Part shown: positions 1 through 17,649 of the stretch, piece after piece | Layout: each line of letters starts with the position of its first letter | Position numbering within the stretch: position 1 is the first letter of the stretch | Source: Pyrinomonadaceae bacterium | Lineage (GTDB): Bacteria; Acidobacteriota; Blastocatellia; Pyrinomonadales; Pyrinomonadaceae | Direction of reading: 5' to 3' | Assembly (NCBI GenBank): GCA_031392315.1 | Contig: JANMVC010000130.1 | Coordinates: forward strand, 1-41,444 | DNA: 41,444 bases | Translations under genes and position numbers: made by a program | Notes under the pieces: model-generated | What the model was told of the DNA's origin: nothing | Databases searched by the model: none | What the model saw: only the letters and a program-made list of their open reading frames with translations

Positions 1-102
1 ATGACTGCCATTGACTGCGGCAGTGTGTTTGGCCCAACTCTGGAAATCAATGTTCGTGTAAACATTAAAACATCCGTAATTACCAGAAGAATTAGAGCGC
101 AG
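1..102. repeat. Terminal direct repeat, copy 1 (102 bp, identical to 41343-41444)
   Basis: Base-by-base comparison of the two window ends. Confidence 0.95.
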
Positions 103-1029
103 CCTTCCTACCCCAACCCGGTTAAACAGATTCCCCTCATCTCGGTTAAAGCATGAGACGTTGTAGTAATAGATGCCAAAACCGTCTGTTTGATTGGGCC
201 AGTTCGTTAAGGTGCCGATGTCGTTGTAAAGAAACGAATTCTGAACTGCGTAATTCGGAGCGATTCCAGAATTTGTAAAGTTGGTAATCTCGCAACTCTT
301 CACCCAGCATCTGTCCGATCCAACCCACAACACTCCATCTACACCAGCACCGACATCAATCGTCATGTCCTCAATTCCGCAGAGAACAATGCCCGGCCCA
401 CCAACCTGATAAAATGCAACAGGACTGTAACCTGTCATTGTATGTAATATTGGAGGAGTAAAGGTCACATCATTACCACTAACCGCAGTGATTCGATGCG
501 TGCTTCTCACATAGCTGCCAATCCCTGTGGTGGTGAAAACAAAGTTAGTATTATCAGAACATTGAATTAGGAACAAAGTATCCACTGCGAAACCCGCATT
601 TGGTGTGGTTGAAAATGTAACAGTTGTTGAGCCCTTGGTAACTCCAGCCGATAGAGATGCTCCTGCTCCACCAGACACACCAACCTGACTGTCGATGAAT
701 CCTGAAGCAGCAAATCTCAGAATTGTTTGACCCTTACCATCTCCTCTTAATGTAACTCCTCGCTTCTGTGCCCAAGTTACGTCTCCACTTAGCGTGTAAG
801 TTCCCGCGCTTAATTTCACTACCTGATTGGAAGTGCAAGCGGCAATCGCGCTAGCAATTTGAGCCGCTGTGGCGGATGACGTAAGAGTTGCGTGAATCGT
901 TGTTCTGTCGTGAGGTCCTCCCGGCACACCGGTTAATGACCAATCTACGGAACGGTAAGAAGGAAGAGAATATGTGGCCGAAATAACGCAGAGCGGAAAT
1001 GACAACAGAATTAGGATAGCCGCTTTCAT
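1..1029 (-). CDS. N-terminal 343 codons of a 570-aa junction-spanning secreted right-handed beta-helix (pectate-lyase-fold) tailspike/depolymerase-like protein
   Basis: Manual translation: ATG at 1029-1027 overlaps the TGA of the upstream gene (ATGA). N-terminus is MKAAILILLSFPLCVISA. No stop in this frame down to base 1, and the frame matches 41342->40659 once the 41,342-bp period is applied. Confidence 0.8.
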   Translation of the reverse strand, partial: MKAAILILLSFPLCVISATYSLPSYRSVDWSLTGVPGGPHDRTTIHATLTSSATAAQIASAIAACTSNQVVKLSAGTYTLSGDVTWAQKRGVTLRGDGKGQTILRFAASGFIDSQVGVSGGAGASLSAGVTKGSTTVTFSTTPNAGFAVDTLFLIQCSDNTNFVFTTTGIGSYVRSTHRITAVSGNDVTFTPPILHTMTGYSPVAFYQVGGPGIVLCGIEDMTIDVGAGVDGVLWVGSDRCWVKSCEITNFTNSGIAPNYAVQNSFLYNDIGTLTNWPNQTDGFGIYYYNVSCFNRDEGNLFNRVGVGRLRSNSSGNYGCFNVYTNIDFQSWAKHTAAVNGSH

Positions 1030-2129
1030 TGCTGTTCATCAAAACCGATATCCCACGATCCAGATCTCGTCTGCCCATCCACGTCATCACCGAAGAGGCT
1101 AACTCCACTTGGGTCCGTGACTCCAAAATCTTTTGCGCCAGTATCTCCTGATTGCAAATGAAAATCCACCCCACCCACGAATGTATAGGTCTGGCTCGTC
1201 CGTGAGTTACTCCCGGGAGCGCTAGCATCACTGGATGAATTGTAGCTAGAACCGTGAAGGGCTGTAACGCTCTCGAAGCCATTCCCGAGCGTCGGCGCGG
1301 CGGAAATACAGTTCTTTAGAATTTGCGGATCAATATAATTGAAACCGTTACTGACGGACGTGCAGTTATAACTCGTAACATTGGTCCAAGCTGAGTTGAA
1401 ACCCATGGTATAACTTCCCCCACTGCTTGCCATTGTGTAGGCAAGACAGTTAAACATCCGCATCTTGTTTGAGTGCGTAATAATTGCGAACTCCGAATTC
1501 CCGAACCCCGTGATTCCACCTCCAGCATGGTCCATCCTCGCAATACTTCTGCTTATCCGGCAATCGGCGTCAATGCGCCCGGAGCCAACATTGGCAGTGC
1601 TCAACCGATAGCAAAGATATCCGCTGCCTGTAGTGCCCCGAATATGAACTTGTAGATTGTCGATCCGCACATGGGCTGGCTGATTGTTATAAATCGCGTT
1701 AGCGTTGGTGAACGCCATTCGATAGGCAGTGTCGTTCCATATTCCGGGCGTTGGGTTGTTCCCTTTGATTTCGAGATAATTCGATGGGGTCGTGCTGACA
1801 CTGTTCCACTGCGTTTGGGTTACATTGGTAACGTCATTGATCGATCCCATACAACTGATCCGCGTTGGTCCGGCTGTCAGTGCCGTATCGAGTGACGAAT
1901 GAATGATCGCCTCGTACAGGGTGGCAAAGGCCCGCGTTGCCCCTGACGTGTTGGTCGTAGTCCCATCTCCACCGACCGTCGAGTCAGTATTGACGTAGAG
2001 CGTGGTGCCACTGAATGAATCACCTGCTGCTGCGCTGGCCTTCAGTAACGGAAGATAGGCTGCCCGCGAAACGTTCAGTTGCGCGCTTGCCGAAACGCAA
2101 AAGGCCAGGAGAAGGAGGAGCGTTCTCAT
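1026..2129 (-). CDS. Secreted parallel beta-helix repeat protein (367 aa), fibre/depolymerase-like
   Basis: N-terminus MRTLLLLLAFCVSASA-Q. The C-terminal DFHLQSGDTGAKDFG...DVDGQTRSGSWDIGFDE resembles the common beta-helix-protein tail motif. ATGA overlap at both ends. Confidence 0.8.
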   Translation of the reverse strand: MRTLLLLLAFCVSASAQLNVSRAAYLPLLKASAAAGDSFSGTTLYVNTDSTVGGDGTTTNTSGATRAFATLYEAIIHSSLDTALTAGPTRISCMGSINDVTNVTQTQWNSVSTTPSNYLEIKGNNPTPGIWNDTAYRMAFTNANAIYNNQPAHVRIDNLQVHIRGTTGSGYLCYRLSTANVGSGRIDADCRISRSIARMDHAGGGITGFGNSEFAIITHSNKMRMFNCLAYTMASSGGSYTMGFNSAWTNVTSYNCTSVSNGFNYIDPQILKNCISAAPTLGNGFESVTALHGSSYNSSSDASAPGSNSRTSQTYTFVGGVDFHLQSGDTGAKDFGVTDPSGVSLFGDDVDGQTRSGSWDIGFDEQQ

Positions 2130-4843
2130 TGCACGGCGATCAGGGTTCCAACGACGTTCGTTCCGTAGCGGGAGAGTGAATAGACATAGGCGACGCCCTG
2201 GGTCAGTGTGGTCCAGAGCGGTGAATTCGCGTTCGTCCGAAAGTAGGTTCCGTCATAGCTGGCCCCAGACACCGGCCAATTCACTCCTCGATTGATAAGC
2301 TGAGGGAAGATCATAAAAGACACATCCGCCGCCGTGGTCGCATCGACTCCGGTGTAATTGGTGAAAGTCGCGTTGTTCGTGAGCGTCATCGAAACGCGGT
2401 TCGTGCGGAAGTTGACGACGATATTGGAGAGCGAGCTGTTGGTCGGGATGAGCGCGGATTGCAACGCGAAAACGTGATTGTTGATGTTGGACACCACGCC
2501 CGACGTTGGGAATTCCACGCCGGACACGACGAGGTTGCTCAACACGCCAGGGCTAAGCGTGAGCGTGCCCGAATTGATTTGGAGTTGGGTCGAGCTCTCA
2601 TTGGTGACGTTGTTGGCGACGGTGCCGACCAGGTTGCTCAAGACCATGCTGGCCGACTGCTTTCCGGACAACTCAGCCACAAGGTTGGTTGACCCAATGG
2701 TCAAGCTCGTGGCCGTCGCCGCTCCGATGGCTCCATCCGCAAAGAGCAGCGCGCCTGTTCCTGATTCATCATCCATCAGTGCGCGCAGCTCACTGGAGGC
2801 GTCGATCTCCGTTTCGAGCAGGATGTTCAAGGCGCCGATAGCCGTCTCGATCTCCGCGATGGTGTCCCACTCGGTGTCGAGTGTCGCGCCGGAGGGAAGT
2901 TGCGCGGTGGCGAGCGGAGCGTTGGTAATCACTCCAGTCTGACCCGAAACGCTGTGGACGGAAAACAAATGGTTCGCGGCCAGCACGGAGAGGTCGAACT
3001 CCAGGATGTTCGTCGGCTTACCAGTCAAGCTGATGGTCGGGACGGTGAACGATACGCCCGAGTTGCCGTTCGTCCCCTTGATGGCCACCACGCCCGGCCC
3101 GCTCCCTTCCACGCCCGTGGTGATTCCGTTTGTTGCCACTATCCAATTTCCGGCGTTCGTTCCGCTGACGAAAAGATTCGTCAAAGCGCTCACTGAACCC
3201 TGAAGCTCACTCGTTCCTTCGTTAATGATTCCCACCCCGAATAACCCTAGGGTTGAGACATCAAGCGACGCGATGATGGTTGTTCCGAGACCGATCAAGC
3301 CCCGAACTGTCGGCGAATTGCTCCGCACCAGATGACCGCTCCCGCTCGTCGTCGGGATGTTGATTTCCATCACCACAACGCCCGCTTGATTTGATCGGCT
3401 GGAAACGGTGAGCGCCGAAACGTCTGAGCCGTTGGTGAAGCCGATGGTGTGGATGTTGGTCCCGACCGTGACGCCGTTGACCTGCGCGGCTTTCACGGAC
3501 CCGCCACCGGCTCCTGCGTCATCGTCGCTGACGGTGAATGTATGGACCTGGTTGGGGGCCGTGCCGCTGCTGGCGGCTGTGACCGTGATCCCTCCGGTGC
3601 CCTGAATGACCTTTACTCCGTTGGTCGAAATGAACCCGTTCTGTAGATGATTTGTCGTGAGGAAAAGATTCGTGGACATTCCAGCCCACTCGATTAGTTC
3701 CGCATCGGTGATGGCGAGATCGATGTTCGTCCCGCGATTGGTTCCTCCCAGGCCGAACCCAGGTTCGATCGAGCGTAGGAGATTCGTGATGCCCGCCTTG
3801 CCGTTGACCATGCCGAAGCGCGTGGCGTTGGTCACCGCTGCTTCGCCGTTCACGTTCACTTCGCCCACGCCGCTGAGCGCCTCGATCTTGTCGTAGAGCG
3901 CGTTCTTGGTGGGCACGGTCAGCGCGCCATCCCAGCCCACTCCGTAAGCTTCCTCCGGCACCGTAACTGTGCCGGCCGCCACGATGTTGGAGGAGAACCA
4001 GGCATTGACGTGGTTCGTCCAGTTGTAGGGGGAGATCCCCCAGACGATGCGGGGCGAAGCGGAATTGTTGCCCAGCTCCAGGGTCAGGAGCGCCTCGGCG
4101 CTGCTGCCGCTGAAGGCGGACATGGCGAAAGATTTCCAGCGCACGCCCGTCCTGAAGCTCGCGGTGCCGTAGCCGAAGATTTCGTCGAGGTACAGTTGCG
4201 TGCCCGCCTGCACGGCCGTGGGGCTGGCGAGCGTACCTTCAGCCTTGTGGGTGAGATACTGCGGGTAGTGCGCGGAGGTTCCGTATTGCCACAACGAAAC
4301 GTCAGGCCGGGTTGTGTTCGTTTCCGTGATTCGCAGAAACGCTTGCGATTGGATCCCAGCCTCGGGATAAAAGACGCCTCGGTTGGTGACCACCGTCGAG
4401 AATGTGGCAGCGCCAAACAATTCCGTGAGCCCATAGAAGTCCGTGTTGGTGCCGAGCCCGCTCGTGCTGGCGACGTAGGCGCCGGCATTCGTGGCTCCTG
4501 GCGCGATGCCTGAGCCGACGATGTTGGAGAGCACGATCGCCAGATACACATTACCACTCGCATTGGTAAGGAACCGCGTCGGGTCAAAATGATATTGCGT
4601 CTCCACTGACCCCGCCCCACCTGCGCCCGTGTTCGTAATCCACGGCCCGAGGTTGGTCGCTAAGTCAGGCGCGAGAATGTAGCGGGAATACTTGATGCCA
4701 GATGCGTCCTGAGTGACCACGTAAAAGAGGCTGTTGGATTGGATGGCTCGCGTGCGCGTGAGACGACTCAGCTTCGTGCCCGCGACACACAGACAGACGA
4801 CGGCGATTAAAAGACCGGCGGTGAAAAAGCGTTTCGAGTTCAT
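2126..4843 (-). CDS. Large fibre-like protein (905 aa) with N-terminal signal/anchor
   Basis: Long ORF rich in Thr/Gly/Asn/Ser. N-terminus MNSKRFFTAGLLIAVVCLCVAG. ATGA overlaps with both neighbours. Confidence 0.8.
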   Translation of the reverse strand: MNSKRFFTAGLLIAVVCLCVAGTKLSRLTRTRAIQSNSLFYVVTQDASGIKYSRYILAPDLATNLGPWITNTGAGGAGSVETQYHFDPTRFLTNASGNVYLAIVLSNIVGSGIAPGATNAGAYVASTSGLGTNTDFYGLTELFGAATFSTVVTNRGVFYPEAGIQSQAFLRITETNTTRPDVSLWQYGTSAHYPQYLTHKAEGTLASPTAVQAGTQLYLDEIFGYGTASFRTGVRWKSFAMSAFSGSSAEALLTLELGNNSASPRIVWGISPYNWTNHVNAWFSSNIVAAGTVTVPEEAYGVGWDGALTVPTKNALYDKIEALSGVGEVNVNGEAAVTNATRFGMVNGKAGITNLLRSIEPGFGLGGTNRGTNIDLAITDAELIEWAGMSTNLFLTTNHLQNGFISTNGVKVIQGTGGITVTAASSGTAPNQVHTFTVSDDDAGAGGGSVKAAQVNGVTVGTNIHTIGFTNGSDVSALTVSSRSNQAGVVVMEINIPTTSGSGHLVRSNSPTVRGLIGLGTTIIASLDVSTLGLFGVGIINEGTSELQGSVSALTNLFVSGTNAGNWIVATNGITTGVEGSGPGVVAIKGTNGNSGVSFTVPTISLTGKPTNILEFDLSVLAANHLFSVHSVSGQTGVITNAPLATAQLPSGATLDTEWDTIAEIETAIGALNILLETEIDASSELRALMDDESGTGALLFADGAIGAATATSLTIGSTNLVAELSGKQSASMVLSNLVGTVANNVTNESSTQLQINSGTLTLSPGVLSNLVVSGVEFPTSGVVSNINNHVFALQSALIPTNSSLSNIVVNFRTNRVSMTLTNNATFTNYTGVDATTAADVSFMIFPQLINRGVNWPVSGASYDGTYFRTNANSPLWTTLTQGVAYVYSLSRYGTNVVGTLIAVQ

Positions 4844-5226
4844 TCTATATCCAGTGTTTGACCCTCTTCAGTTTCCAATGCGGTTTCGCTTCCCGTCTGA
4901 ATGAGGCTCGATGCGGTGAGTGTCCCGTTTGTGTCAGGCACGTTTATTCTGAAAACGCTCGTGTAGGTGTTGCCGAGGACAAAGACCCGGTATTCGCCTT
5001 CGCTCAGATTCGTCGCGGTGAAGATCCCGTTTGTGCCGGTGTTGAAAAATCGACGGTCGCTGATGACCACGTTGTTTCCATTCCCGCGCACGGTGGACAG
5101 TGGCTCAACGCGCACGGTTTTTCGTTGGATAGGGACAGCGGTCCCGAGGATGTCCACGAGGTTGAAGGTGACGTTGGCTCCGAGAGCGACGCTGACGGAT
5201 AACAACAGAATCAGAATGACTCTCAT
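4840..5226 (-). CDS. Small secreted Ig/carboxypeptidase-regulatory-like beta-sandwich protein (128 aa)
   Basis: N-terminus MRVILILLLSVSVALG-AN. The GEYRVFVLGNTYTSVFRINVP stretch resembles CarboxypepD_reg-type strands. ATGA coupled. Confidence 0.7.
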   Translation of the reverse strand: MRVILILLLSVSVALGANVTFNLVDILGTAVPIQRKTVRVEPLSTVRGNGNNVVISDRRFFNTGTNGIFTATNLSEGEYRVFVLGNTYTSVFRINVPDTNGTLTASSLIQTGSETALETEEGQTLDIE

Positions 5227-6680
5227 CGCCAGACTCCTTTCAAACGCCAGCGCGCGGCTGACGCGTTGTAGATGGCTTCAAACATAGCCGGGTTGTTAGT
5301 CAACACCACGTCAGCGCCCGTGCCGGTGACGATTCGATTTGCTGCCGTCGGGTCAGTTCCGGATTGGTGCGCGATGGTCAGGCTTGAGGTTGGATTATCC
5401 GCTTCGATGATGTGCCACGAGCCATCCTGCTCCGCCGCGAATCCATTGATCACATAAGCCGCCGAAGGCCCGGAGAGCCGCAAGAAAACATTCGTCCCGA
5501 GGACGACGGCCGCATTGTTACCGTTGGCCAGTGAGGTGTTGGCGCGAGATGTGAAATCTACACGGCCGTTGAAAACGTTCGTTCCGCGATGGGTGTTATT
5601 CGTGAACACCGAACTCGTGAACCGACCCGGCGCTGTGACCGCATGATCGGCTGACCCGAGGATGATTTGATTCGTGGTGGTTGTCGCGGCGAAGCCACCG
5701 ATAGCCACGGAGTTTTGATCCGCTGCCGCCGAAGAGACTCCGATGGCAATCGAATTTGAACCCGCTGCACCGGACGCGGCACCTATCGCCAGCGAGCCCC
5801 CGCCGGAAGCCGTGGCATCCGTTCCGAGCGCCGTCGCATCCACCGAAGAGGCTTCCGCCAATGTCCCAAGAGCCACTGCTGCCCCGCCGCTGGCGATGGA
5901 TGCGTATCCGACCGCCGTCGAACTCGCCCCGCTCGCGGTTCCTGAGATGTCAACGGAGTTCGCCCCGCTGCCGGGCGCGAAAAGATTTGTGAGATACGGG
6001 GAATCAAATACGCCATTGGTCCAATAACCATTCGTCAGCGCCACCACGTAGCCGCGATTGGTGGAGTTGTAAAAGCTGGCGTTGGTTAGGCTGGCAAAAG
6101 CCGCCGTCAGCAGGGTGCGAAATTCAGTTTCCGTCAGAACCACCTGCTTAGTTCCAGCTCCTTTATGGAGTAGGTTGGAAACCGCCGTCGAGTTAGTCGC
6201 GAATGCCTGCGTTGAGAACTGCGACAGCCCGTAAACAAAGGCGCTCGCCTGATTCGTCCGATTCGTCGCACCGTCCATATTCTCGATTGGCCAGAGCGCC
6301 GTGAACGTCGCGGCTGCTGCTTGCGTGTTGAGGGTGAGCGTCGCCCACGTGCCGGCGCTTGAAGCGGCCAGCGCCCCGCCGATGGGTCCGCGCAGTTCGA
6401 TCTGATTCGTGTTCAGCCAACGCGGAAGGATGGCGCCGGTGTAAGGCGCGAATGCGATCTGGTTGAAGAGATTTGTTGCCGCCAGATTGACGCTGACGAG
6501 GTTGGTCGCAATCGTCGTCGCCGAGATCGCATTGGTCCATGTGCGCGTGCTCGAGTTGACGGTGAGCGTGTTGGATGTGACGGGCGGATTCGTTACGGTG
6601 ATGGTCAACCGAATGCGCTCTTGATTTGCGCCGAACGCGGAGACAGCAAAAAGCAAAAGGAGAGGTAGCAGCTTGTTCAT
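5223..6680 (-). CDS. Fibre/adhesin-like protein with YadA/Hep_Hag-like Ser-Ala-Gly head repeats (485 aa), signal peptide
   Basis: N-terminus MNKLLPLLLLFAVSAFG-AN. Repeats run TASGASSTAVGYASIASGGAAVALG...SLAIGAASGAAGSNSIAIG...NSVAIGG. Confidence 0.8.
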   Translation of the reverse strand: MNKLLPLLLLFAVSAFGANQERIRLTITVTNPPVTSNTLTVNSSTRTWTNAISATTIATNLVSVNLAATNLFNQIAFAPYTGAILPRWLNTNQIELRGPIGGALAASSAGTWATLTLNTQAAAATFTALWPIENMDGATNRTNQASAFVYGLSQFSTQAFATNSTAVSNLLHKGAGTKQVVLTETEFRTLLTAAFASLTNASFYNSTNRGYVVALTNGYWTNGVFDSPYLTNLFAPGSGANSVDISGTASGASSTAVGYASIASGGAAVALGTLAEASSVDATALGTDATASGGGSLAIGAASGAAGSNSIAIGVSSAAADQNSVAIGGFAATTTTNQIILGSADHAVTAPGRFTSSVFTNNTHRGTNVFNGRVDFTSRANTSLANGNNAAVVLGTNVFLRLSGPSAAYVINGFAAEQDGSWHIIEADNPTSSLTIAHQSGTDPTAANRIVTGTGADVVLTNNPAMFEAIYNASAARWRLKGVWR

Positions 6681-7303
6681 ACGTCGAAGGTCTGATCGAT
6701 GGCGTTGCCGCCGTCGTCCACGCCGATCACGCGCTGTTTCAGGTTGCCGGGTGACGTGATGGTAAGTTGCCCGCCAGCCTCCATGACGCGCGGGACAAAC
6801 TGCGCGACGATTTGAGCCTTGGTGTAATACTCATCATTCGGCGTGGGGGCGACGGAGCTGACCTGCGTGACGGCGTTTTGAAGTGTGATTTGGCCGATGA
6901 ATACTTTGGTTCTAGCCGTGCCTTCCTGAACCTCGATCTCGAGATACGCGGTCTTCGTTGAATCCGATCCGAGATAGGTATTCAGGAGGGCCGTGTTCAG
7001 GGCTAGTTCTCCGCTGAACACGTTTTCAGTTTCGTCCTTGGACCAAACCGTTAGGAGGGCCAGCGGCGCCGCTGAATCATAAACGCTATTGATTGCAACG
7101 GAGAGTGACAGCGGAGAAATATCAATCCGATTGAAGCGATCTAATCGGCTCGAAGTGAGGTCGGGTTCAACGAGGACAACTTGAATCGGAACGGTCTCGT
7201 ATTTGGTGAAGGAAGAGAGTTGAACGCTGCCTCCGTTCATGTCCGACACCTGCAACTTCTTATCGGGGAAGTTGACAAAAAGTTTTCGCCAAGCCGTTGC
7301 CAT
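6677..7303 (-). CDS. Hypothetical tail-tip/baseplate-region protein (208 aa)
   Basis: ATG at 7303 lies 8 nt downstream of late motif copy 1. Its stop overlaps the next start (ATGA). Confidence 0.75.
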   Translation of the reverse strand: MATAWRKLFVNFPDKKLQVSDMNGGSVQLSSFTKYETVPIQVVLVEPDLTSSRLDRFNRIDISPLSLSVAINSVYDSAAPLALLTVWSKDETENVFSGELALNTALLNTYLGSDSTKTAYLEIEVQEGTARTKVFIGQITLQNAVTQVSSVAPTPNDEYYTKAQIVAQFVPRVMEAGGQLTITSPGNLKQRVIGVDDGGNAIDQTFDV

Positions 7304-7311
7304 TGACGCCG

Positions 7312-7340
7312 GGGTTAGGCGTGCAAATGGCGGGGGTCAA
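7312..7340 (-). promoter_or_regulatory. Late start-associated/promoter-like motif copy 1 (TTGACC-17 nt-TAACCC)
   Basis: Minus strand reads TTGACCcccgccatttgcacgccTAACCCcggcgtcaATG. Confidence 0.5.
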
Positions 7341-7369
7341 TTACGGAAATCATGTGCCTAGTGGTCCAC

Positions 7370-7996
7370 CTAAATAACGTCGATCTGGCGGTGAGCAACC
7401 AATGTTAGCAGTGTGGTCAACTCGGAAACGCTCAGCCCCACAGACGGCAGGAGGACGGATATTGCGGGACCACCAAACGTCACCGACTCGATCACGTCGG
7501 GCCTTTTAAAGCCATTCACATACGTGGTCGATGAGACACGGACGCGATAAGCGCACGGATGAGCGAACCAAACCCTGCTGCGGCGCGCCACCGCAGCGGT
7601 CGCGCTCAACCCCTGGGTGTTCAATCCAAAGGACGTTACCGTTGGAAACGCTAAGAGCCCGCCGAGTGTGCCGGCCCGGATGACAACACCGGCGCGATCG
7701 ACATACAGGTCGGCCCCACCGGGTCGAGTCATGTCGAGAGTGAACGGCGCGGAGTCGCGTGACAAGAAGGTGATGGATGGCGCATTGAAGTCGAACTCGT
7801 CCAGTTTAGCTTTCATCGCCGCGAGCAATGCCGCCACTGCGATCTCGCGATCTATTCCTGTTGGAACGTCATTCGACCCCAAATTGATAGTCGTCCAACC
7901 AACTACTTCGCAAGGTGGCGGTGGGCGAATCAGCCGATCTCTAGCAATCGACTTTACATAATCCCGATTTACGGATCGATCTGGCGCCCTGCTCAT
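7370..7996 (-). CDS. Hypothetical tail-tip protein (208 aa)
   Basis: ORF abuts the upstream stop. Positioned in the tail-tip block. Confidence 0.75.
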   Translation of the reverse strand: MSRAPDRSVNRDYVKSIARDRLIRPPPPCEVVGWTTINLGSNDVPTGIDREIAVAALLAAMKAKLDEFDFNAPSITFLSRDSAPFTLDMTRPGGADLYVDRAGVVIRAGTLGGLLAFPTVTSFGLNTQGLSATAAVARRSRVWFAHPCAYRVRVSSTTYVNGFKRPDVIESVTFGGPAISVLLPSVGLSVSELTTLLTLVAHRQIDVI

Positions 7997-8584
7997 TTAA
8001 TACTTCGTCCACGCTCGCCCGTCGCGATTCAAATCAATCAAAGTAATCGGCGCGTCATTCGGATCGGTCAACGGTGTGTAACTCGGGCCGCTGGTAATCT
8101 TGCCGCTCAATTCTATCGCGAAGATGAGTTGGTTCGCACTCTTAAAGTAGGGCGTCAGGACTTGGATTTCCGCCACCCCCGCGATCGTTTTAGTTCGCTT
8201 CGTCGCGGATGTGTAAGTGTAGGTTGCGGTGAAAGCGTCGCCGTCCGAACTGTAGACGATGCTTTGCCCGTTCCAATTTGAAACCATGTGCTCGAAAGGA
8301 CGAGCGATGTAAATCTCGTCGCCTGTCTCCGCTGTGCCGGTCCATTTCTTGCAGGAATAGAAATCGTTTTCGATCGAGACAAGTCGATATTGCTGAACCG
8401 ATGCGCCAGCCGACGCCCTCGGAATATCCGCGGTGAACGTTGTCCCGTTCGCCTTTCGGTTGACATTGATCCCGCGCCCGCCCACGGGAGAAATCTCGCG
8501 CACGTATTCAATCAGCCGATTAAACTCAGCCCAGACCGGGCGATACAATCCGATCTCGGGAATCTTGCGCGGAGTTTGATTCAT
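7997..8584 (-). CDS. Hypothetical tail-tip protein (195 aa; start moved to MNQTPRK)
   Basis: ATG at 8584 lies 1 nt after the upstream TAA (8586-8588). The longer track start would overlap the upstream gene. Confidence 0.7.
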   Translation of the reverse strand: MNQTPRKIPEIGLYRPVWAEFNRLIEYVREISPVGGRGINVNRKANGTTFTADIPRASAGASVQQYRLVSIENDFYSCKKWTGTAETGDEIYIARPFEHMVSNWNGQSIVYSSDGDAFTATYTYTSATKRTKTIAGVAEIQVLTPYFKSANQLIFAIELSGKITSGPSYTPLTDPNDAPITLIDLNRDGRAWTKY

Positions 8585-8585
8585 T

Positions 8586-9356
8586 TTACCAAGCGAGGTT
8601 TCCGCCGGAGGTCGTGTAAGCCAGCAAGGACCACGGCGCGAACACGAGTTCAACGGTCTGTTCCGCGTAGTTGCCGACGATCTCCACGCGTTGCCCGCGC
8701 TTGCGCCAGCCCCATTGATAATCCGAACTCGGCGCGGCGGGTGTCGCCGGGAGGTTGAACGCCACCCCCGCAGGAAGCTGAAGCTGATTCGTGGTGTAAA
8801 TGTAAAACCCCGTGTCGAGCGTGATCTGCCCTCCAGCGTAAGCGTAGCTGAGATCCACCTGCCGAAACCGTCGCAGGCAAACGAAGTCGATTTGATAACC
8901 GGTCACGCCGGATTTGAGATGCCGGACAACACTCAGGAACAGTGGGGAAGTAATGACTGATGCGCCTGGTGCTTTTCCAACTGCTAGTTCCGCTCTCTCT
9001 CGGTAGGTCGTGGAGCCCTCTGCGGCAATGTCATCAAAGGCTGCAATTTCCGCCATTACCCCGGGCAATTCAAAGATGCTTTTCTCCTGTGCCTCCGTCG
9101 TGATCTCGTATCGGTCTAAAACTTCCTGCGTCGGTTCGTTGATCGGAATTCGAGCCGACAACCCGTAAACCGGCCCGTCGATTTTGTTAATCCGAAAACT
9201 AATCCCCTGCGCCTTGAGCGTGACACCGAGTCCAAAGATCGCGCTCTGTGAACCTGCGTAAAAACGATCCTCAACCTCAACGCCCGACTCCGCTTCAAAC
9301 GCCGGTTCGCGAGAAACCAGCGTGACGCCGCCGTAGCCTTTCCAGCGTGCGCTCAT
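8586..9356 (-). CDS. Hypothetical distal-tail protein (256 aa), directly after the tape measure
   Basis: ATGA overlap with the tape-measure stop. The function is inferred from position only. Confidence 0.7.
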   Translation of the reverse strand: MSARWKGYGGVTLVSREPAFEAESGVEVEDRFYAGSQSAIFGLGVTLKAQGISFRINKIDGPVYGLSARIPINEPTQEVLDRYEITTEAQEKSIFELPGVMAEIAAFDDIAAEGSTTYRERAELAVGKAPGASVITSPLFLSVVRHLKSGVTGYQIDFVCLRRFRQVDLSYAYAGGQITLDTGFYIYTTNQLQLPAGVAFNLPATPAAPSSDYQWGWRKRGQRVEIVGNYAEQTVELVFAPWSLLAYTTSGGNLAW

Positions 9357-10519
9357 CGTGTAACGTCCCTCACGACGATTCCATTGACGGAGAGCACTTG
9401 GTTAATGGCGGACAATAGTTCCACCTGCCGTTGCGGTTGCGCGGCGTTGGATGCGGCACCGGTGAAAGCGCCGATGCGACCGAATGCGGATTCTTCAATC
9501 CCGTTTCTGCTCTTCGATTTCGGCGTGCTCTTGGAATTCAGAGCGTGAACTTCAGAATCAATCTTCGCCTTGGCGAGCGCTAGAACCGCGTTGGCCTCTT
9601 CACCGAGTTGCAGTGTGAGTTGCCGCTGAATCTCGGCGCGCTCTTCCAGAAGTTCATTCAGCCGCTCCTCTTTGGTCAGTTGAGAAATGCGCGTGCGCTC
9701 ATTGATGTCGTCGGCTTCACCAGTGAGCTTCCGAACGCGGTCGTCGGTCTTTTCCAGTTCTTCCTTCTTGGAGTTGTCGGCGAGGATTTGATTTTCGTCG
9801 ATGGTTGGTTTCGCGCCGCCTCCGCCTAGCTTTTCCAGAAGCTTCACCACCGGCGCGGGAATTAAGCCGGAAGATACGAGCGTTGCCAGTCGCAACCCTA
9901 GAACCTTTGCGCTGGCGGCAATCCTAATCATGCCGTCATTGACAAGCCCCATGTTGTAGATCTCTTTGTCGGAGAACATCAAGACGCCATTCTTGGCCTG
10001 ATATAAATCCCCCATAGATGTAACGGCCTTTGCGGCTCCCTTGCCGAAAATGTCTACCATCTTCTCCGCCCGGTCCGCACTTAGCCCAGTCTCGTCAATC
10101 GCCTTCGCCATGCGTGTCCATGCCTCTGCGGGCTTCATTTTAGCAATGTCGGCGACAGAGATGCCAAATTTCTCTAACTTGTTTTCTTTTCCGTTCAGAG
10201 CGTCAGCCATTGCGCCGCGAAGTTTCAAAAATTGGGCAGTGAATCCCCCCACATCGGTGCCGCCAAGCTTTGCGGCAAGTGCAAATTCTTGGGCCTCTTT
10301 GTTAGTGATCCTGAGCTGCTCGCCCATCTCCTTGATCTCATCGCCGGTCTGTAAAATCTCACGGCCAAATGCGACGACCGCCCCAATTGTAAACGCTCCC
10401 GCCAGTTGGCTTTTTAGGTCTGTGCCGAACTGGTTAGCCCTCTTTGTCGCATCCGCCAAACCAGCGTCAAAACCCGTTTTATCAAGGCCGAGTTTTGCGA
10501 GTAAGCTAAGAATTGCCAT
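9353..10519 (-). CDS. Tail tape measure protein (short, 388 aa)
   Basis: Ala/Gly/Lys-rich helical protein (MAILSLLAKLGLDKTGFDAGLADATKRANQFG...) in the canonical position after the tube and chaperone. Confidence 0.7.
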   Translation of the reverse strand: MAILSLLAKLGLDKTGFDAGLADATKRANQFGTDLKSQLAGAFTIGAVVAFGREILQTGDEIKEMGEQLRITNKEAQEFALAAKLGGTDVGGFTAQFLKLRGAMADALNGKENKLEKFGISVADIAKMKPAEAWTRMAKAIDETGLSADRAEKMVDIFGKGAAKAVTSMGDLYQAKNGVLMFSDKEIYNMGLVNDGMIRIAASAKVLGLRLATLVSSGLIPAPVVKLLEKLGGGGAKPTIDENQILADNSKKEELEKTDDRVRKLTGEADDINERTRISQLTKEERLNELLEERAEIQRQLTLQLGEEANAVLALAKAKIDSEVHALNSKSTPKSKSRNGIEESAFGRIGAFTGAASNAAQPQRQVELLSAINQVLSVNGIVVRDVTR

Positions 10520-11144
10520 GAAACTTTCCTGATTTGATGTTCTCCGCGAGTTGTTCCGCTGCGGCTAAAGCCTGCTCCTTGGCGTCGCGTCCATACATTT
10601 TCACTTCGTTATTGAGCGCCTTCAAAACAACGTGATCCCAAAGACAGAGCGCCCATGACCGATCAAGGATTTCCGATTCACTGATATGCAAGTCGCGCAT
10701 GAGCGTGACCTTGATTAGTTCGATGGACGGCACAGCCAGCTCGCGAAAGTCGCCCGGGTTGAAATCGTAATCAGGAATCTTGCTGCCTTCCTTTAGGTAA
10801 TCCGCGAATTCTAGACATTTCGATTGCAAGTCGATCGGTCGGAACTTACGGAACCCAATCTTGACCCAGAACGAATCTGCGCCGGTCAACTGGTCGTGCC
10901 AGCGTCGCATGAATTCCGGCAGGTCTTGGTCATCGAAGGTCGCAATGTTTTGTTCCCATGTCTGGGAACAGATGAGAACCGACAACGCGAGATCGTGGTA
11001 GGCAGGTTCCCCTTCGTCGGCGGTGACGAAAGCGGATTTGACCCGGTGAAGAAGTAGAAGATGCCCGAGGCTAAGCGGACGCAAACGCAACCCGAGAATC
11101 GTTCTCGGTTCTGGCACCGCCGCTAAGTAAAATTCGTCGGTCAT
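10506..11144 (-). CDS. Putative tail assembly chaperone (positional), 212 aa
   Basis: Lies between the tube candidate and the tape measure. No slippery-site extension seen. Confidence 0.5.
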   Translation of the reverse strand: MTDEFYLAAVPEPRTILGLRLRPLSLGHLLLLHRVKSAFVTADEGEPAYHDLALSVLICSQTWEQNIATFDDQDLPEFMRRWHDQLTGADSFWVKIGFRKFRPIDLQSKCLEFADYLKEGSKIPDYDFNPGDFRELAVPSIELIKVTLMRDLHISESEILDRSWALCLWDHVVLKALNNEVKMYGRDAKEQALAAAEQLAENIKSGKFHGNS

Positions 11145-11147
11145 TCA

Positions 11148-11588
11148 TTACGCTGCGGCTGCCGTCGTTAAATCGTTCCCCTCGTCACCTTGTTCAAGTT
11201 CGAGGTCGATACTCACCACGCCTTCAACGCTGCGGCTCTGGGAAGCGCTGATGAGGTTGTAGGATGCGTCAATAACTGTCCCGCTCGCATCGACCGCCGT
11301 GATCGTAGTGCCAGGCGCGGGCATGTAGGCGTCGGCGCTACTATTGGCCGCACTGGCCGAGTTGGTCGGCGCCGCTGGAATCACCGTCATGGAAAGCGTC
11401 TTCTTGAAGCCGTGAAAGATTTGTGTGCGCAGAACGCCGTCATCGTCCACCACCTCGGTCATCTTGCTACCGCGATTGAAGCGCGCGCTCTGGGGGAAGG
11501 CGGGGTTCGTCGCGCTGACGATGCCAGCGGTGAAAGTGATTCCGCCGATGCTCCATTTTACGGCCCGGCCCTTAAGTGTCGCACTCAT
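11148..11588 (-). CDS. Putative major tail tube protein (146 aa)
   Basis: Position and size fit. The ATG lies 6 nt after late motif copy 2. Confidence 0.55.
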   Translation of the reverse strand: MSATLKGRAVKWSIGGITFTAGIVSATNPAFPQSARFNRGSKMTEVVDDDGVLRTQIFHGFKKTLSMTVIPAAPTNSASAANSSADAYMPAPGTTITAVDASGTVIDASYNLISASQSRSVEGVVSIDLELEQGDEGNDLTTAAAA

Positions 11589-11594
11589 GGACGG

Positions 11595-11623
11595 GGGTTA
11601 GAAACTGAAATGGCGGGCGTCAA
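11595..11623 (-). promoter_or_regulatory. Late motif copy 2 (TTGACG-17 nt-TAACCC)
   Basis: Minus strand reads TTGACGcccgccatttcagtttcTAACCCccgtccATG. The TTGACG contains the upstream TGA stop. Confidence 0.5.
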
Positions 11624-12057
11624 GCGGTCAATGCTTGGCTGCAACAATAAACATCCATCGAAAGTTCGCTGACCCACTGCCGATCTTCGATGCGACTGCC
11701 GCCGGCCAGACGATTGGAGATGCCGAATACTCCGAAGTCTGAAGTTGCCGCGCCGAGCTCAGTTGCCAAATCGTCGGACATGAAAACGCCGAGCACGATC
11801 CCAGCGGCGGTGCGCTGTTGTGCGACGGATGTATCATCTGCGCTCAATCGAAGTTCAACGGAAAGTTGCAGCGTGAAGTTGCCAGACCCCTGCGGAAACT
11901 CGGGTCCGTTCTGCGCGACCACGAGCGCGTGCGGAAGCGTCTTGGTGGAATCATCCGTGCCGGTGAAGACAAGCACGGGCGCGGCGCCGACAGACACGCC
12001 CATCGCCTCAATGAGCGCACGGCCGGCGGCTTCTAGCTTTTGGGGGAGGTCTTGCAT
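11620..12057 (-). CDS. Hypothetical head-tail connector/tail terminator-region protein (145 aa)
   Basis: ORF immediately upstream of the tube gene. Confidence 0.7.
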   Translation of the reverse strand: MQDLPQKLEAAGRALIEAMGVSVGAAPVLVFTGTDDSTKTLPHALVVAQNGPEFPQGSGNFTLQLSVELRLSADDTSVAQQRTAAGIVLGVFMSDDLATELGAATSDFGVFGISNRLAGGSRIEDRQWVSELSMDVYCCSQALTA

Positions 12058-12058
12058 G

Positions 12059-12226
12059 TCACGAATTCCAGCGGACGCCTTCCGCTTTGAGTTTCGCCGC
12101 GTTATCGACCATCCATCTGATTGGAATTATCGCAGCATAGGCACCCACCAGAACCAGAGCCGCAGAACCAATTACAACCCCTATTGCGACGAGCTGAAAA
12201 AACTCGAACGCTTCCCTTATTCTCAT
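12059..12226 (-). CDS. Unlisted micro-ORF, single-pass membrane peptide (55 aa)
   Basis: Manual translation gives MRIREAFEFFQLVAIGVVIGSAALVLVGAYAAIIPIRWMVDNAAKLKAEGVRWNS. TGATG overlap upstream; its stop lies 1 nt before the next ATG. Confidence 0.45.
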   Translation of the reverse strand: MRIREAFEFFQLVAIGVVIGSAALVLVGAYAAIIPIRWMVDNAAKLKAEGVRWNS

Positions 12227-12954
12227 CACTTCGCACTCGCTTTCTTTAGGTCGGGAGCCAATCGCCGGGCCAACTCCTTCACCATGTCTCGCGCCGTCAC
12301 GTCCAAAGCCAACTGTAATCCTTTCACCGACGTAGGCATCGGGTCGCCACCGGGCGCAGGTGGATTCGATTCGTTCCCCTTTAACGCGGTGTTTTGGATC
12401 ACGGCTTCAATCTTTGAATTCAGAGAGAACCTCGCAGGCTTTGCTCGGCCCTTCGGTTTCCCGTATTGCCGGGCATCGCCCGTGGACTTCAACCCGGACG
12501 GCTTGCCTTTGACAAAACTGAAAAGCGCATTCCGCGCCCCAATCCAACCGGATGCGATGAACCCAGCGGAGCGCACCTTGGACGCGATGTAATTTGCCAC
12601 GCGCTCTTCCATCGTTTCGCCCTTGGCGCCCCATTCCCCGGTGAGTTTGAATCGCTTGGCCAAAATTAGAGCAGCCAGGCTGTTTTCCTTGGCCTGATAC
12701 GCGCCCTGCTTTACCCGTATCTTCCCCTTGTTTTTGCCGCGCTTGATTTGCTGGAAGCTGACTTGCCGACCGATGGCCCCGAGGACGTGCGCGATCTGTT
12801 GTCGATTCGCTTTCATCGTATTCCGCACCGCTTCAATTGACACCTTGAGCGCCTGGCCGTTGGTGAAGTCCACACAAGTCCGAGAGCTGGTGGCTCTCAA
12901 ATCGTTGGCGGCTTGATGGAACTGCCGCATGTCCAGACCGATGGTGGGTTTCAT
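12226..12954 (-). CDS. Hypothetical connector-region protein (242 aa)
   Basis: ATGA overlap with the upstream gene. Basic, Lys-rich. Confidence 0.75.
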   Translation of the reverse strand: MKPTIGLDMRQFHQAANDLRATSSRTCVDFTNGQALKVSIEAVRNTMKANRQQIAHVLGAIGRQVSFQQIKRGKNKGKIRVKQGAYQAKENSLAALILAKRFKLTGEWGAKGETMEERVANYIASKVRSAGFIASGWIGARNALFSFVKGKPSGLKSTGDARQYGKPKGRAKPARFSLNSKIEAVIQNTALKGNESNPPAPGGDPMPTSVKGLQLALDVTARDMVKELARRLAPDLKKASAK

Positions 12955-13193
12955 CGCGCTGAAGTCCTCGCGTTAAAGGTGCCCGTCATATTCTCACACT
13001 TCCGCATTCTCGGAACGGCGGTGTAAGCAGGCATCAATCGTCGCTCGCAGGCGCTGGCTTCCGCGCGCGCGGCATCTCGGCTTCTCACCAAACCGGAACC
13101 AAGCGAAGCGTCGCCGTCGCCCAGCACGTTCCATCGATAACTCCCCGACGGGAGCTTCGTGTATTTCTTGCGAAAGAATCGTTGTCCTCTCAT
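12951..13193 (-). CDS. Small AP2/Arm-like putative DNA-binding protein (80 aa), paralogue of 24483..24776
   Basis: MRGQRFFRKKYTKLPSGSYRWNV..LGSGLVRSRDAARAEA matches the pattern MRGxRxFxKKxTxL..(Y/W)RWxV..G...AA. ATGA overlaps on both sides. Confidence 0.55.
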   Translation of the reverse strand: MRGQRFFRKKYTKLPSGSYRWNVLGDGDASLGSGLVRSRDAARAEASACERRLMPAYTAVPRMRKCENMTGTFNARTSAR

Positions 13194-13513
13194 TTATGCG
13201 CGCTCCTTAAATCCATCTGGAAACCGACGTTGAGCGGATCGATCTCCGTGCGGTCGATCCGGTAGGTCTTGGTTCCGATGATGACGGATTGACCCACGGT
13301 CGGCAGTGTGACGAAAACATTGGCCCCGACTGAATCCTTCAGCGCGATCACCAGCGTCATCTCCGGACCTTCCTCGAACCCGCCGAGTTCAAGCGCACGT
13401 CTCATATTCAACCCTGAGATGGTTCCGGTGTAGGAGTTACCCGAGAAGGTGAAGAGTTGCGGAGCGTCAGAAATCATGGCGCGTAGGTCATTGCCATGAA
13501 TGTCGGCCGTCAT
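13190..13513 (-). CDS. Hypothetical head-tail joining-region protein (107 aa)
   Basis: The ATG lies 8 nt after late motif copy 3. First gene of a new coupled string. Confidence 0.75.
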   Translation of the reverse strand: MTADIHGNDLRAMISDAPQLFTFSGNSYTGTISGLNMRRALELGGFEEGPEMTLVIALKDSVGANVFVTLPTVGQSVIIGTKTYRIDRTEIDPLNVGFQMDLRSAHK

Positions 13514-13521
13514 CGGAACGG

Positions 13522-13550
13522 GGGTTAGCAGCCGAAACCGCCGCTGTCAA
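13522..13550 (-). promoter_or_regulatory. Late motif copy 3 (TTGACA-17 nt-TAACCC)
   Basis: Minus strand reads TTGACAgcggcggtttcggctgcTAACCCccgttccgATG. Confidence 0.5.
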
Positions 13551-13601
13551 TTAGCATTGGACCGCGGGTGTCTTACCTGTCTGGACAATTACTGTCTAAC
13601 A

Positions 13602-13635
13602 ACGGAAAAGCCCCGGTCCTCAAACGAGGCGGGGC
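13602..13635 (-). terminator. Rho-independent terminator ending the membrane-protein cassette
   Basis: Minus-strand RNA reads GCCCCGCCUC-GUUU-GAGGACCGGGGC followed by UUUUCCGUUGUU (10 bp stem with a 2-nt bulge). Confidence 0.65.
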
Positions 13636-13661
13636 GCTAAACGTGACGAGAGGTTTGGGTT

Positions 13662-13967
13662 TTAGGACGGTTCTGGAGTGGCGTCGGGAACGATGTCATC
13701 GAGCGCCTGCGTGGTGATTTTCAATTCAGCAACGGCGGACTCGATGGCGGACAGGTCGCCGCCTGCATCGATGATGTCTCCCAGGCTTTTGAGTTTGGCC
13801 AGCACTTCGTCAATGCCCTTTCGGGTTTGCTGTCCAACCGCTCGAATTTCCGCTGCGATTTCTTCGGATGTTTTTGCCATAAGCTCTTTGAGTTCTTGGT
13901 GTCGTTTTTGTGTTTCGCTCAACCGCTCCAACCCGAGCCAGTCGAGCACGGAGCGAATCAAGCGCAT
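13662..13967 (-). CDS. Coiled-coil hypothetical protein (101 aa; start moved to MRLIRSV)
   Basis: ATG at 13967 lies 4 nt after the upstream TAA. The longer track ORF overlaps the barrel gene. Confidence 0.6.
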   Translation of the reverse strand: MRLIRSVLDWLGLERLSETQKRHQELKELMAKTSEEIAAEIRAVGQQTRKGIDEVLAKLKSLGDIIDAGGDLSAIESAVAELKITTQALDDIVPDATPEPS

Positions 13968-13971
13968 GGAT

Positions 13972-14571
13972 TTAGAACTTGAAACCGAACCCCGCGCGCA
14001 CGCGCACCGCGTTCCCGAGTTCGGACAATTCCTGTTCAAAGCCGTGAATGGCTTGCGCATCGGCAAAGATGGAGAACCTGTCCCGCCGGAATTCCAAACC
14101 GGCACCGGCGGCGAGAAGGTTTTCGTGCTGAACAAAGTCCCGGTGGTAGCCGCCAATCAGATACGGCGCGAACCCAGTCTGCTTGAGCGGGAAGTAGTAT
14201 TTGAGATTTCCGCCGGCGTCGCGGAATGACTCGAGCCACTGCGAATCGTCAATGCCTTCGCTGGTGACTTCAGCTTCGACGGTGAGCTTCTCCGTTAGTG
14301 AATAGCCGAGCGCCAGACCGCCGCCGTAGCTGAGTTCGCTATCCACTATGGACGCGGTGGCGAATGGTGAGAGGGTGACGCGGCCTTTTGAGAAGAGCGA
14401 AGGCGCGTCAGCAGCGTGAACCGATGCGCTGAAACAAAGGAGCATGGCGGCCAATGATAACTTTTGTGTTCGCTTCCTCCATCGAGGTGGACGGCAGTCA
14501 GGGAGCTTGTCGATTCCGATGATGGCGAGAGTTGCGACGACTAACAGCACGTTAATTTGTAGGAAAATCAT
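13972..14571 (-). CDS. Outer-membrane beta-barrel protein, Lom/Ail/OmpX-like moron (up to 199 aa, start uncertain)
   Basis: Internal signal-like segment KLSLAAMLLCFSASVHA-AD, alternating beta-strand pattern, and a C-terminal RAGFGFKF ending in Phe. Confidence 0.65.
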   Translation of the reverse strand: MIFLQINVLLVVATLAIIGIDKLPDCRPPRWRKRTQKLSLAAMLLCFSASVHAADAPSLFSKGRVTLSPFATASIVDSELSYGGGLALGYSLTEKLTVEAEVTSEGIDDSQWLESFRDAGGNLKYYFPLKQTGFAPYLIGGYHRDFVQHENLLAAGAGLEFRRDRFSIFADAQAIHGFEQELSELGNAVRVRAGFGFKF

Positions 14572-14572
14572 A

Positions 14573-14869
14573 TCAATTTTCGGTTTTTTTGGTTTCTTTG
14601 GTCACGGTCGTTGTCACGGATTCCGTCTGAGTCACTTCTAGTTCCGGCACAGGCGAACGCTGAAGGTAGGCCGCCGTCGAAATAATTCCGCTGACGAGGA
14701 AAGTGCCTAAAATCATCACGAGCAAATTGTGCAAACCATCGCGCAGGTTGTATTCCGATGGCGTCTGGCTGATGGCAATGAACCCGCTGGCCACTGCGCC
14801 CGCACCGCCGCCGATGAAGGCTGCGACGAGTCCGCGAAACCAAACGAGAGGGTCTTTCCATTTCGTCAT
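14573..14869 (-). CDS. Two-TM membrane protein with charged C-tail, holin-like (98 aa)
   Basis: MTKWKDPLVWFRGLVAAFIGGGAGAVASGFIAI...LLVMILGTFLVSGIISTAAYL then a TKETKKTEN tail. ATGA overlap upstream. Confidence 0.55.
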   Translation of the reverse strand: MTKWKDPLVWFRGLVAAFIGGGAGAVASGFIAISQTPSEYNLRDGLHNLLVMILGTFLVSGIISTAAYLQRSPVPELEVTQTESVTTTVTKETKKTEN

Positions 14870-14997
14870 TTTTTGATCCGGTAAGCCGCGAACATCAGGC
14901 TGACCCAAAGCACCAGCGCGGAAATGAGTAGCCAGAAGATGATCCACTCCACGTAGCGAACCGGCGATGACGTGAGCATTAAGGCGTGCATCGTCAT
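14866..14997 (-). CDS. Unlisted micro-ORF, single-pass membrane peptide (43 aa)
   Basis: Manual translation gives MTMHALMLTSSPVRYVEWIIFWLLISALVLWVSLMFAAYRIKK. Its stop overlaps the next ATG (ATGA). Confidence 0.45.
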   Translation of the reverse strand: MTMHALMLTSSPVRYVEWIIFWLLISALVLWVSLMFAAYRIKK

Positions 14998-15009
14998 CGC
15001 CGGATGGTG

Positions 15010-15740: not shown

Positions 15741-15777
15741 GTTCGTTTTCAGTGGAATGTTTCCGGTTCGGTTTTGG

Positions 15778-17643: not shown

Positions 17644-17649
17644 GAGCGC

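Follow-up and report, generated by a model that had tools for sequence, protein, structure and literature searches.

The contig JANMVC010000130.1 (assembly GCA_031392315.1, filed under a Pyrinomonadaceae bacterium) was analyzed over its whole length of 41,444 nucleotides, which we call the window. It holds the complete genome of a temperate siphophage-type virus with lambda-like head genes, nearly all of its genes lying on the minus strand. In this paper we looked at the distal end of its tail operon, where a run of fibre and beta-helix genes encodes proteins with predicted export leaders, and at one small gene of the same kind that follows the capsid gene. The contig ends are an exact 102-nt direct repeat (window 1-102 = 41343-41444), which indicates that the genome is circular with a true size of 41,342 bp. 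Because the origin of the contig is arbitrary on a circular genome, the last gene of the block is split, and it was reconstructed by reading 1029..1 and then 41342..40659. The genes in question are listed here with a slash at the predicted cleavage site.

6677..7303, minus strand: leaderless protein of 208 amino acids (aa), ATGA-coupled to the 485-aa gene
5223..6680, minus strand: 485-aa fibre protein; leader MNKLLPLLLLFAVSAFG/A, codons 6627-6680
4840..5226, minus strand: 128-aa protein; leader MRVILILLLSVSVALG/A, 5179-5226
2126..4843, minus strand: 905-aa mosaic long fibre; leader or anchor MNSKRFFTAGLLIAVVCLCVAG/TKLSRLT, 4778-4843
1026..2129, minus strand: 367-aa protein; leader MRTLLLLLAFCVSASA/Q, 2082-2129
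1..1029, minus strand: 5' part of the 570-aa protein; leader MKAAILILLSFPLCVISA/T, 976-1029
40659..41444, minus strand: 3' part of the 570-aa protein; 41343-41444 duplicates 1-102, a circle-assembly artefact
15276..15740, minus strand: 154-aa protein; leader MKTLLKIAAVLALAVAQLQA/Q, 15681-15740

All six leader-bearing genes of the original prediction are present with the N-termini that it gave them (open reading frames (ORFs) 5223..6680, 4840..5226, 2126..4843, 1026..2129, 40659..1029 across the junction and 15276..15740). The ATGA coupling that it described was also found, with overlaps at 6677-6680, 5223-5226, 4840-4843, 2126-2129 and 1026-1029, and the five coupled leader genes form the end of the tail operon, from 6680 down through the junction to 40659. 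Its statement that every gene of the block has a leader holds from the 485-aa gene onward but not for the ATGA-coupled upstream gene 6677-7303, which is leaderless. The gene after the capsid gene does share the feature, with a leader of the Sec/signal peptidase I type in 15276..15740, and its ATG at 15740 is 35 nt 3' of the protease-capsid stop.

Leaders were scored by a heuristic that takes the charge of the n-region, the hydrophobicity of the h-region and small residues at -3 and -1, applied to about 60 window genes and to every in-frame alternative start. A leader was called strong when its 8-residue Kyte-Doolittle mean was at least 2.9. Strong leaders are confined to the six genes above, to an ORF at 39349-39843 on the plus strand and to an outer membrane protein (OMP) gene at 13972-14571, while the other flagged sites are weak and lie at implausible internal starts. 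With the same heuristic no leader was found in the portal, capsid, connector, tube, tape-measure and tip genes of the window. If 8 of 60 genes were marked at random, a run of at least five leader genes would be expected with P ~5e-4. Lys or Arg is found within residues 2-6 in all six proteins, and the uncharged h-regions span 13-17 residues with a best 8-residue mean of 2.9-3.6. Such a length would fit a signal peptide rather than a membrane anchor, with the 905-aa protein (17 residues) borderline with a signal anchor.

Public metagenomes yielded 260 homologues of the 485-aa protein, of which many lie on contigs of ~41 kb, and its leader statistics were taken from the best 120 of these. The leader is kept in 116 of the 120, and the four homologues that score as leaderless are truncated, mis-started or have a longer n-region. 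Over the 116 leader-bearing sequences, Lys or Arg is present in residues 2-8 in 100% and Asp or Glu inside the leader in 3%; position -1 is Ala in 109 and position -3 is Ala or Val in 98. Pairwise identity is 22% in the leader vs 41% in the next 18 residues, and a conserved mature N-terminus, (D/E)RIT.TITVTN, begins just after it. A search of the family for internal starts that would give leaderless isoforms found no conserved Met or Val after the leader. In the 154-aa family the leader is present in 22/22 homologues and the A/Q junction is nearly invariant. In AF2 models the leaders of the 485- and 154-aa proteins are low-confidence helices outside the folded domains. A conserved property on a drifting sequence, with a cleavage motif just before a conserved domain, is the behaviour of real signal peptides. 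Conservation of the residues at -3 and -1 is to be expected only if signal peptidase cuts on the periplasmic face, and a hydrophobic tether would not need them. The original prediction had named homologues without the hydrophobic leader as evidence that would speak against it; this comparison was made, and the homologues retain the leader. Based on these sequences we suggest, with high confidence, that the leaders are genuine cleavable export signals, mostly of the Sec/signal peptidase I type, which are maintained by selection. Translocation and cleavage of the proteins that bear them are very probable.

Gln is the first residue after the predicted cleavage site in every member of the 154-aa family (homologues P0138-P0158). 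This points to a pyroglutamate at the N-terminus of the mature protein. Other leader-bearing proteins here often have Gln at +1 too, and we take the residue as a weak hint to the host clade, on which nothing is built.

A comparison with related phage genomes, proposed in the original prediction, found the whole pattern again in about nine related phage loci. These were reached through the 485-aa and 154-aa families, and the same arrangement is seen in L002, L003, L006, L007, L009, L010, L011 and L033. In the relatives the capsid gene is followed by a small leader gene and by connector, tube, tape-measure and tip genes, none of which has a leader. Next is a leaderless gene of ~208 aa, and all 4-7 genes that lie between it and the end of the operon are leader-bearing. 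A homologue of the 208-aa gene precedes the 485-aa homologue in every relative examined. The 208-aa protein itself (6677-7303) has no match in Pfam, PHROG or PDB. A 214-aa protein of locus L004 has a weak tie to its family (hhalign probability 3.5%, with a common C-terminal motif only). Independent gene calls on the related contigs give the same starts as those of the window genes.

Not all relatives use the same kind of signal. In locus L005 a distal-block Laminin_G_3 protein (15820-16590) carries a canonical twin-arginine (Tat) leader, MNRRKFIKGASGLFVPAAFS, by the criterion of (S/T)RRxFLK followed by a mildly hydrophobic stretch; this N-terminus (MNRRKFIKG...) is the only one of its type among all fetched loci. 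Locus L009 has a distal protein with a lipobox, LTG/C. Different types of export signal at equivalent genes indicate that export itself is the selected property. The lineage consists of widespread, environmental, uncultured temperate siphophages whose hosts have an outer membrane.

The 485-aa protein is composed of a beta-rich N-domain (20-122), a YadA-like left-handed beta-roll (~240-345, pLDDT >95) and a conserved C-terminal domain. The AF2 model has a pLDDT of 79.8, and residues 1-19 are outside the fold. The beta-roll matches Pfam YadA_head (PF05658, 2.8e-7), and Foldseek retrieves the BoaA and BpaC heads (3s6l, 7o23; ~2e-4, 35-41% identity); in NCBIfam there are partial matches to EmaA and YadA, far below cutoff. 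YadA_anchor, the C-terminal 12-stranded trimeric beta-barrel, has no match in Pfam or NCBIfam for this protein. A trimeric autotransporter was thus rejected as its identity, as the anchor barrel is lacking and the C-terminal domain is a phage-fibre module. Many other viral contigs carry these C-terminal ~125 aa in a gene at the fibre position. Whether tail fibres normally have no leader, as the original prediction took for granted, could be checked with this module, and the premise holds: among 21 viral loci outside the lineage that carry it, 18 are leaderless. One paper reads a lack of signal peptides as pointing to an origin in phages and not in bacteria (PMC6199706), and receptor-binding proteins of phages are distinguished from bacterial surface proteins in this way.

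The 128-aa protein is a small beta-sandwich with a weak CarboxypepD_reg match (0.0088), and leader-bearing orthologues occupy the same position in L002, L003, L006, L007 and L010. In the 905-aa protein the leader and ~80 N-terminal aa (GTKLSRLTRTR...APDLATNLGPWITNSG) are conserved in P0123, P0126, P0131, L006, L010, L007 and L033, and beyond this N-terminus the protein is a mosaic, swapped among relatives. An internal motif of it, VPEEAYGVGWDGALTVPTKNALYDKI (VP.E.YG..W.G.L.VPTKNALYD.I), is also present in P0134, a fibre protein without a leader. PDB sequence searches with the 905-, 367- and 570-aa proteins gave nothing. A conserved N-terminal domain with a variable distal part, as in the 485- and 905-aa proteins, is what is usually seen in proteins that dock to a conserved partner. 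The GC content at third codon positions (GC3) of the 485-, 128- and 905-aa genes is 0.66-0.75, which is phage-typical, and the block is positioned distally, after the tape-measure and tip genes, as a siphophage fibre module would be, with the same order in relatives. That the block represents phage fibre proteins which gained export signals is well supported by these comparisons.

The last two genes are of another character. Their GC3 is 0.55 (367-aa gene) and 0.45 (570-aa gene), vs 0.65-0.75 elsewhere, and they look recently imported. The 570-aa protein has 1413 representative homologues and belongs to a very large beta-helix (pectate-lyase-like), glycanase-like family, whose members are mostly leader-bearing and multidomain, many being fused to PKD, LamG or fn3 domains. 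Homologues match Pect-lyase_RHGA_epim and Beta_helix; the window protein itself has a sub-threshold match to TIGR03805 (6.5e-5) and no Pfam match. The leaderless family members P0174, P0183 and P0186 begin M-YS(I/L)P.ER.YDW, exactly at the cleavage site of the window protein (...VISA/TYSLPSYRSVDW), which indicates that the leader segment is dispensable for folding. In the longer, fused family members P0167, P0168 and P0173 the N-terminal part is similar to the 367-aa protein, which is probably a beta-helix too. In locus L037 a leaderless copy of the 570-aa gene is ATGA-coupled to a gene weakly like the 367-aa gene (24% over 270 aa, E 0.036). A captured host cluster of adhesins and lyases, one of the origins offered in the original prediction, is therefore plausible for these two genes only, given their low GC3 and the relatives of the 570-aa protein, and is not supported for the block as a whole, as the 485-, 128- and 905-aa genes are kept throughout the lineage and have modules in common with phage fibres that carry no leader.

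The 154-aa protein is a C1q/TNF-like jelly-roll, in which the AF2 model (pLDDT 81.7) places a helix at 2-16 and then a beta-sandwich. Foldseek gave only generic jelly-roll, C1q, lectin, carbohydrate-binding-module and fibre-knob matches, so that the modelled fold is compatible with a head-decoration protein as well as with a periplasmic lectin. No muralytic domain (lysozyme, amidase or peptidase) was found in the six leader-bearing proteins with Pfam, PHROG and NCBIfam.

The other genes that bear on the interpretation are the following.

22555-24492: large terminase, lambda-type
17688-19385: portal, lambda-family
15778-17643, minus strand: 621-aa ORF, prohead protease (Peptidase_S78) fused to an HK97-fold major capsid protein, as in PHROG 617 and 4523
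14573..14869, minus strand: holin-like protein with two hydrophobic segments, paired with the OMP gene
13972..14571, minus strand: OMP beta-barrel, Lom-like (PF13505, 2.3e-9)
9353-10519: short tape-measure-like protein
7370..7996, minus strand: leaderless hypervariable tail-tip gene, third after the tape-measure gene; 208-630 aa in relatives
38235-39140: tyrosine integrase
39349..39843, plus strand (opposite to the late genes): 164-aa ORF beside the integrase, strong leader MRYLAALACLLCVAVVTRG/Q, no family match

Replication and recombination genes and a D12 methyltransferase are also encoded in the window, and no tRNA genes were found in it. The portal and capsid proteins have at most 47% identity to any cultured phage, and a tblastn search of 50,697 phage records gave no match to the 485- and 905-aa proteins. 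Neither the 485-aa family nor a conserved tail-protein family of the lineage has a copy in the 185,579 species genomes, which were scanned once for each family.

The OMP gene has an internal leader (...LSLAAMLLCFSASVHA/ADAPS; ...AAMLLCFSASVHA/A) that follows an N-terminal extension. The presence of an OMP beta-barrel gene points to a host with an outer membrane, in which exported proteins would by default end up in the periplasm. The OMP gene and its holin-like partner (13972-14947) lie between the head and tail genes; in L002 and L005 such a pair comes after the fibre block, and in L006 a holin-like gene is found there. No recognisable endolysin or spanin was found anywhere in the window, and the lysis system may be unconventional. 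The ORF at 39349-39843 is probably an accessory (moron-type) gene that is expressed in lysogeny.

The tip gene 7370-7996 and its equivalents in L002-L033 have no conserved alignment column, though they are flanked by conserved genes, and it could encode a leaderless receptor-binding protein or be an arms-race gene. Between the tube-like and tape-measure genes lies a gene for a 212-aa protein (10506-11144, minus strand), which has no family match, carries a motif, LGLRLRP(L/F)SLGH, that is highly conserved across the lineage, and occupies the expected position of a tail-assembly chaperone. Shine-Dalgarno-like motifs are present upstream of only 10/40 genes, again a weak host hint on which we do not build. 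The heptamer TAACCCC occurs 8 times vs 2.0 expected (a count reached in 0/100 shuffles), with 6 copies on the coding strand; the sites include 7311-7317, 11594-11600, 13521-13527 and five others. Several lie 5-12 nt 5' of late-gene ATGs, where the TAA is probably the stop codon of the upstream gene, and the heptamer may act as an unusual signal for re-initiation or ribosome binding, which might help to point to the host. Within the fibre block there is one sigma-70-like site in 9.5 kb vs 4.2 expected, where sigma-70 may not be the type of the host, and terminator-like sites are at chance level.

One of the questions raised by these leaders is how exported fibre proteins could take part in a phage particle. 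By textbook, tailed-phage assembly is wholly cytoplasmic, so that a fibre module with export signals is unexpected, and no precedent for leader-bearing tail fibres or tailspikes was found in full-text searches of the literature. We suggest the following mechanism. The six proteins would be made from the late structural operon and sent to the periplasm, where signal peptidase would trim them, and proteins treated in this way cannot join the tail during its assembly in the cytoplasm. The core particle, from capsid to tail tip, would be assembled in the cytoplasm, and the peripheral appendages would bind to it once the holin breaches the inner membrane, or later in the lysate, with the two putative beta-helix enzymes acting either free or fibre-bound. 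Such late attachment to the virion, at or after lysis, is our preferred but tentative reading of the gene content. It is favoured because of the fibre architecture of the 485- and 905-aa proteins, the modules they share with virion fibres and the fact that they are always coupled in translation to tail genes. That leaders are confined to the protein classes which lie outermost and are added last also fits late attachment. Late joining is physically possible, as T4 long fibres and P22 tailspikes can be added in vitro to particles that are already complete. If this reading is correct, fibres, glycanases and a lectin-like protein that are exported by Sec, and sometimes by Tat, and dock on virions that are complete in all other respects would be the first extracytoplasmic assembly step described in a tailed phage; we regard this as possible, and hold it a little more cautiously still.

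Several points weigh against late attachment. To our knowledge, no tailed phage adds virion parts after Sec export, and the established exported late proteins that we know of are all non-structural (Lom, Bor, Cor, Llp, spanins and secreted or signal-arrest-release (SAR) endolysins). Joining at or after lysis risks dilution. In the 367- and 570-aa proteins the predicted beta-helix starts at the mature N-terminus, leaving no N-terminal particle-binding (adaptor) domain. Receptor binding could really be the task of the leaderless, hypervariable tip gene 7370-7996, in which case a particle that lacks the exported proteins may still be complete. The four leaderless tip proteins match no known architecture in Pfam, PHROG or PDB or by hhalign against lambda M, L, K, I and J.

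The explanation that survives best beside late attachment is that real leaders take the proteins to the envelope of the infected cell, or out of the cell, where they act without ever becoming part of the virion. They could cut or bind capsule, exopolysaccharide or surface glycan before lysis, which would let the progeny escape and prevent its re-adsorption to debris, or they could mask receptors and so cause superinfection exclusion. This option has clear attractions. Established exported late phage proteins are all non-structural (PMC6116005), and bacteria export tailspike-like glycanases of their own, such as the Tat-dependent WceF (PMC7949094). The 367- and 570-aa proteins, without an adaptor and with a 570-aa family made up mostly of leader-bearing multidomain enzymes, would suit such a role, as would the lectin-like jelly-roll of the 154-aa protein, and receptor binding could be supplied by the leaderless tip gene. 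It fits less well with the 485- and 905-aa proteins, which have a classic fibre architecture with modules common to leaderless fibres and whose genes are ATGA-coupled to tail genes in a position kept in every relative. In addition, Sec alone ends in the periplasm, and no outer-membrane-crossing signal was found with Pfam and NCBIfam. We consider a role off the virion credible, if rather doubtful. Envelope delivery independent of the virion and an unusual assembly route were both among the explanations offered in the original prediction, and the comparisons made here fit either of them.

Another hypothesis is that the hydrophobic N-termini do not serve translocation at all and are membrane tethers, assembly or trimerisation segments or chaperone handles in a conventional fibre assembly; trimerisation or attachment segments had been named as an alternative in the original prediction itself. 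The 905-aa protein is the best candidate for this, as its leader is long (17 uncharged residues) and its conserved ...CVAG-TK(L/I)S end could be an uncleaved anchor. Yet the hypothesis gives no reason for Ala at -1 (94%), Ala or Val at -3, a basic n-region (100%) and the exclusion of acidic residues amid sequence drift, nor for a Tat motif and a lipobox at equivalent genes. Leaderless homologues that begin precisely at the cleavage site, and AF2 leaders that stay outside the domains, also argue against it, and we find it unlikely.

The original prediction also offered a captured host cluster of surface adhesins and polysaccharide lyases as an explanation of the block. As lysogenic-conversion cargo, such a cluster would be expressed from the prophage and benefit the host. 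In its favour are the YadA-like head, a feature by which exported bacterial adhesins are recognised, the foreign GC3 and bacterial-type relatives of the last two genes, and the temperate nature of the phage, which has an integrase. However, the YadA membrane anchor is lacking and the C-terminal domain is a phage-fibre module, the 485-, 128- and 905-aa genes have phage-typical GC3 (0.66-0.75) and keep their order across about nine related phages, and no copy of the 485-aa family or of the conserved tail-protein family was seen in the scans of 185,579 species genomes. The ATGA coupling to tail genes, with no excess of promoter-like sites, argues against independent expression, and for the block as a whole this origin appears improbable. 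Finally, an artefact of wrong start codons or chance hydrophobic N-termini is effectively refuted, as the ATGA overlaps fix the starts, related contigs are called with the same starts, the leader is kept as a property in >100 homologues and the clustering alone has P ~5e-4.

Whether or not the proteins join the virion, an entire distal fibre module with export signals and hundreds of metagenome homologues would be new biology. If they do join it, the result would be a new assembly route in which fibres attach at lysis after folding in the periplasm, where disulfide formation, calcium or glycosylation would be available to them. If they stay off the virion, they would represent a fibre-derived, exported apparatus for remodelling the envelope or its glycans that is co-expressed with the tail. 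Pipelines that discard leader-bearing proteins in the prediction of receptor-binding proteins or depolymerases would miss this class, and recombinant expression of such depolymerases should begin at the mature N-terminus.

By comparing the block with known systems, partial parallels can be found. The closest mechanistic precedent is that of the secreted and SAR endolysins (Lys44 of Oenococcus phage fOg44; Lyz of P1), late proteins which leave the cytoplasm by way of Sec in the latent period and wait there, to act once the holin fires (PMC6116005). These differ in being single muralytic, non-structural enzymes, where here a whole fibre and glycanase module of 4-7 genes is concerned. Leader-bearing envelope proteins are also encoded in or beside tail-fibre regions: Lom and Bor of lambda, Llp of T5 and Cor of phi80, N15 and T1 are small outer membrane proteins or lipoproteins, independently expressed as morons, with roles in exclusion or serum resistance. 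The window resembles them in having leader genes in the fibre region and a Lom-like OMP barrel, but its leader genes are large, fibre-like and translationally coupled to tail genes, and share modules with fibre proteins. WceF of Pantoea stewartii is a Tat-exported, trimeric, tailspike-like glycanase encoded on the chromosome in an exopolysaccharide biosynthesis cluster (PMC7949094). It parallels the block as a tailspike-fold beta-helix enzyme with an export signal, and the relative L005 has a Tat-type leader as well; unlike the genes here, it is not part of a phage structural operon. With trimeric autotransporters (YadA, BoaA, BpaC and EibD) the 485-aa protein has in common a Sec leader and a YadA-like left-handed beta-roll head, but it has neither the YadA_anchor nor a coiled-coil stalk, and its N- and C-terminal domains are of phage type.

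Among virion proteins, the T4 long tail fibres and the P22 tailspike are leaderless and join in the cytoplasm in vivo, and they resemble the present case in that appendages can bind completed particles, as late attachment requires. The g3p and g8p of filamentous phages are virion proteins with Sec-type leaders, assembled outside the cytoplasm by membrane extrusion; they share these leaders with the proteins described here and belong to an entirely different virus type, and we know of no tailed phage that uses extracytoplasmic coat assembly of this kind. None of the endolysins, Lom, Bor, Cor, Llp or WceF is a full fibre module, and there is a substantial chance that the block represents a categorically new assembly step.

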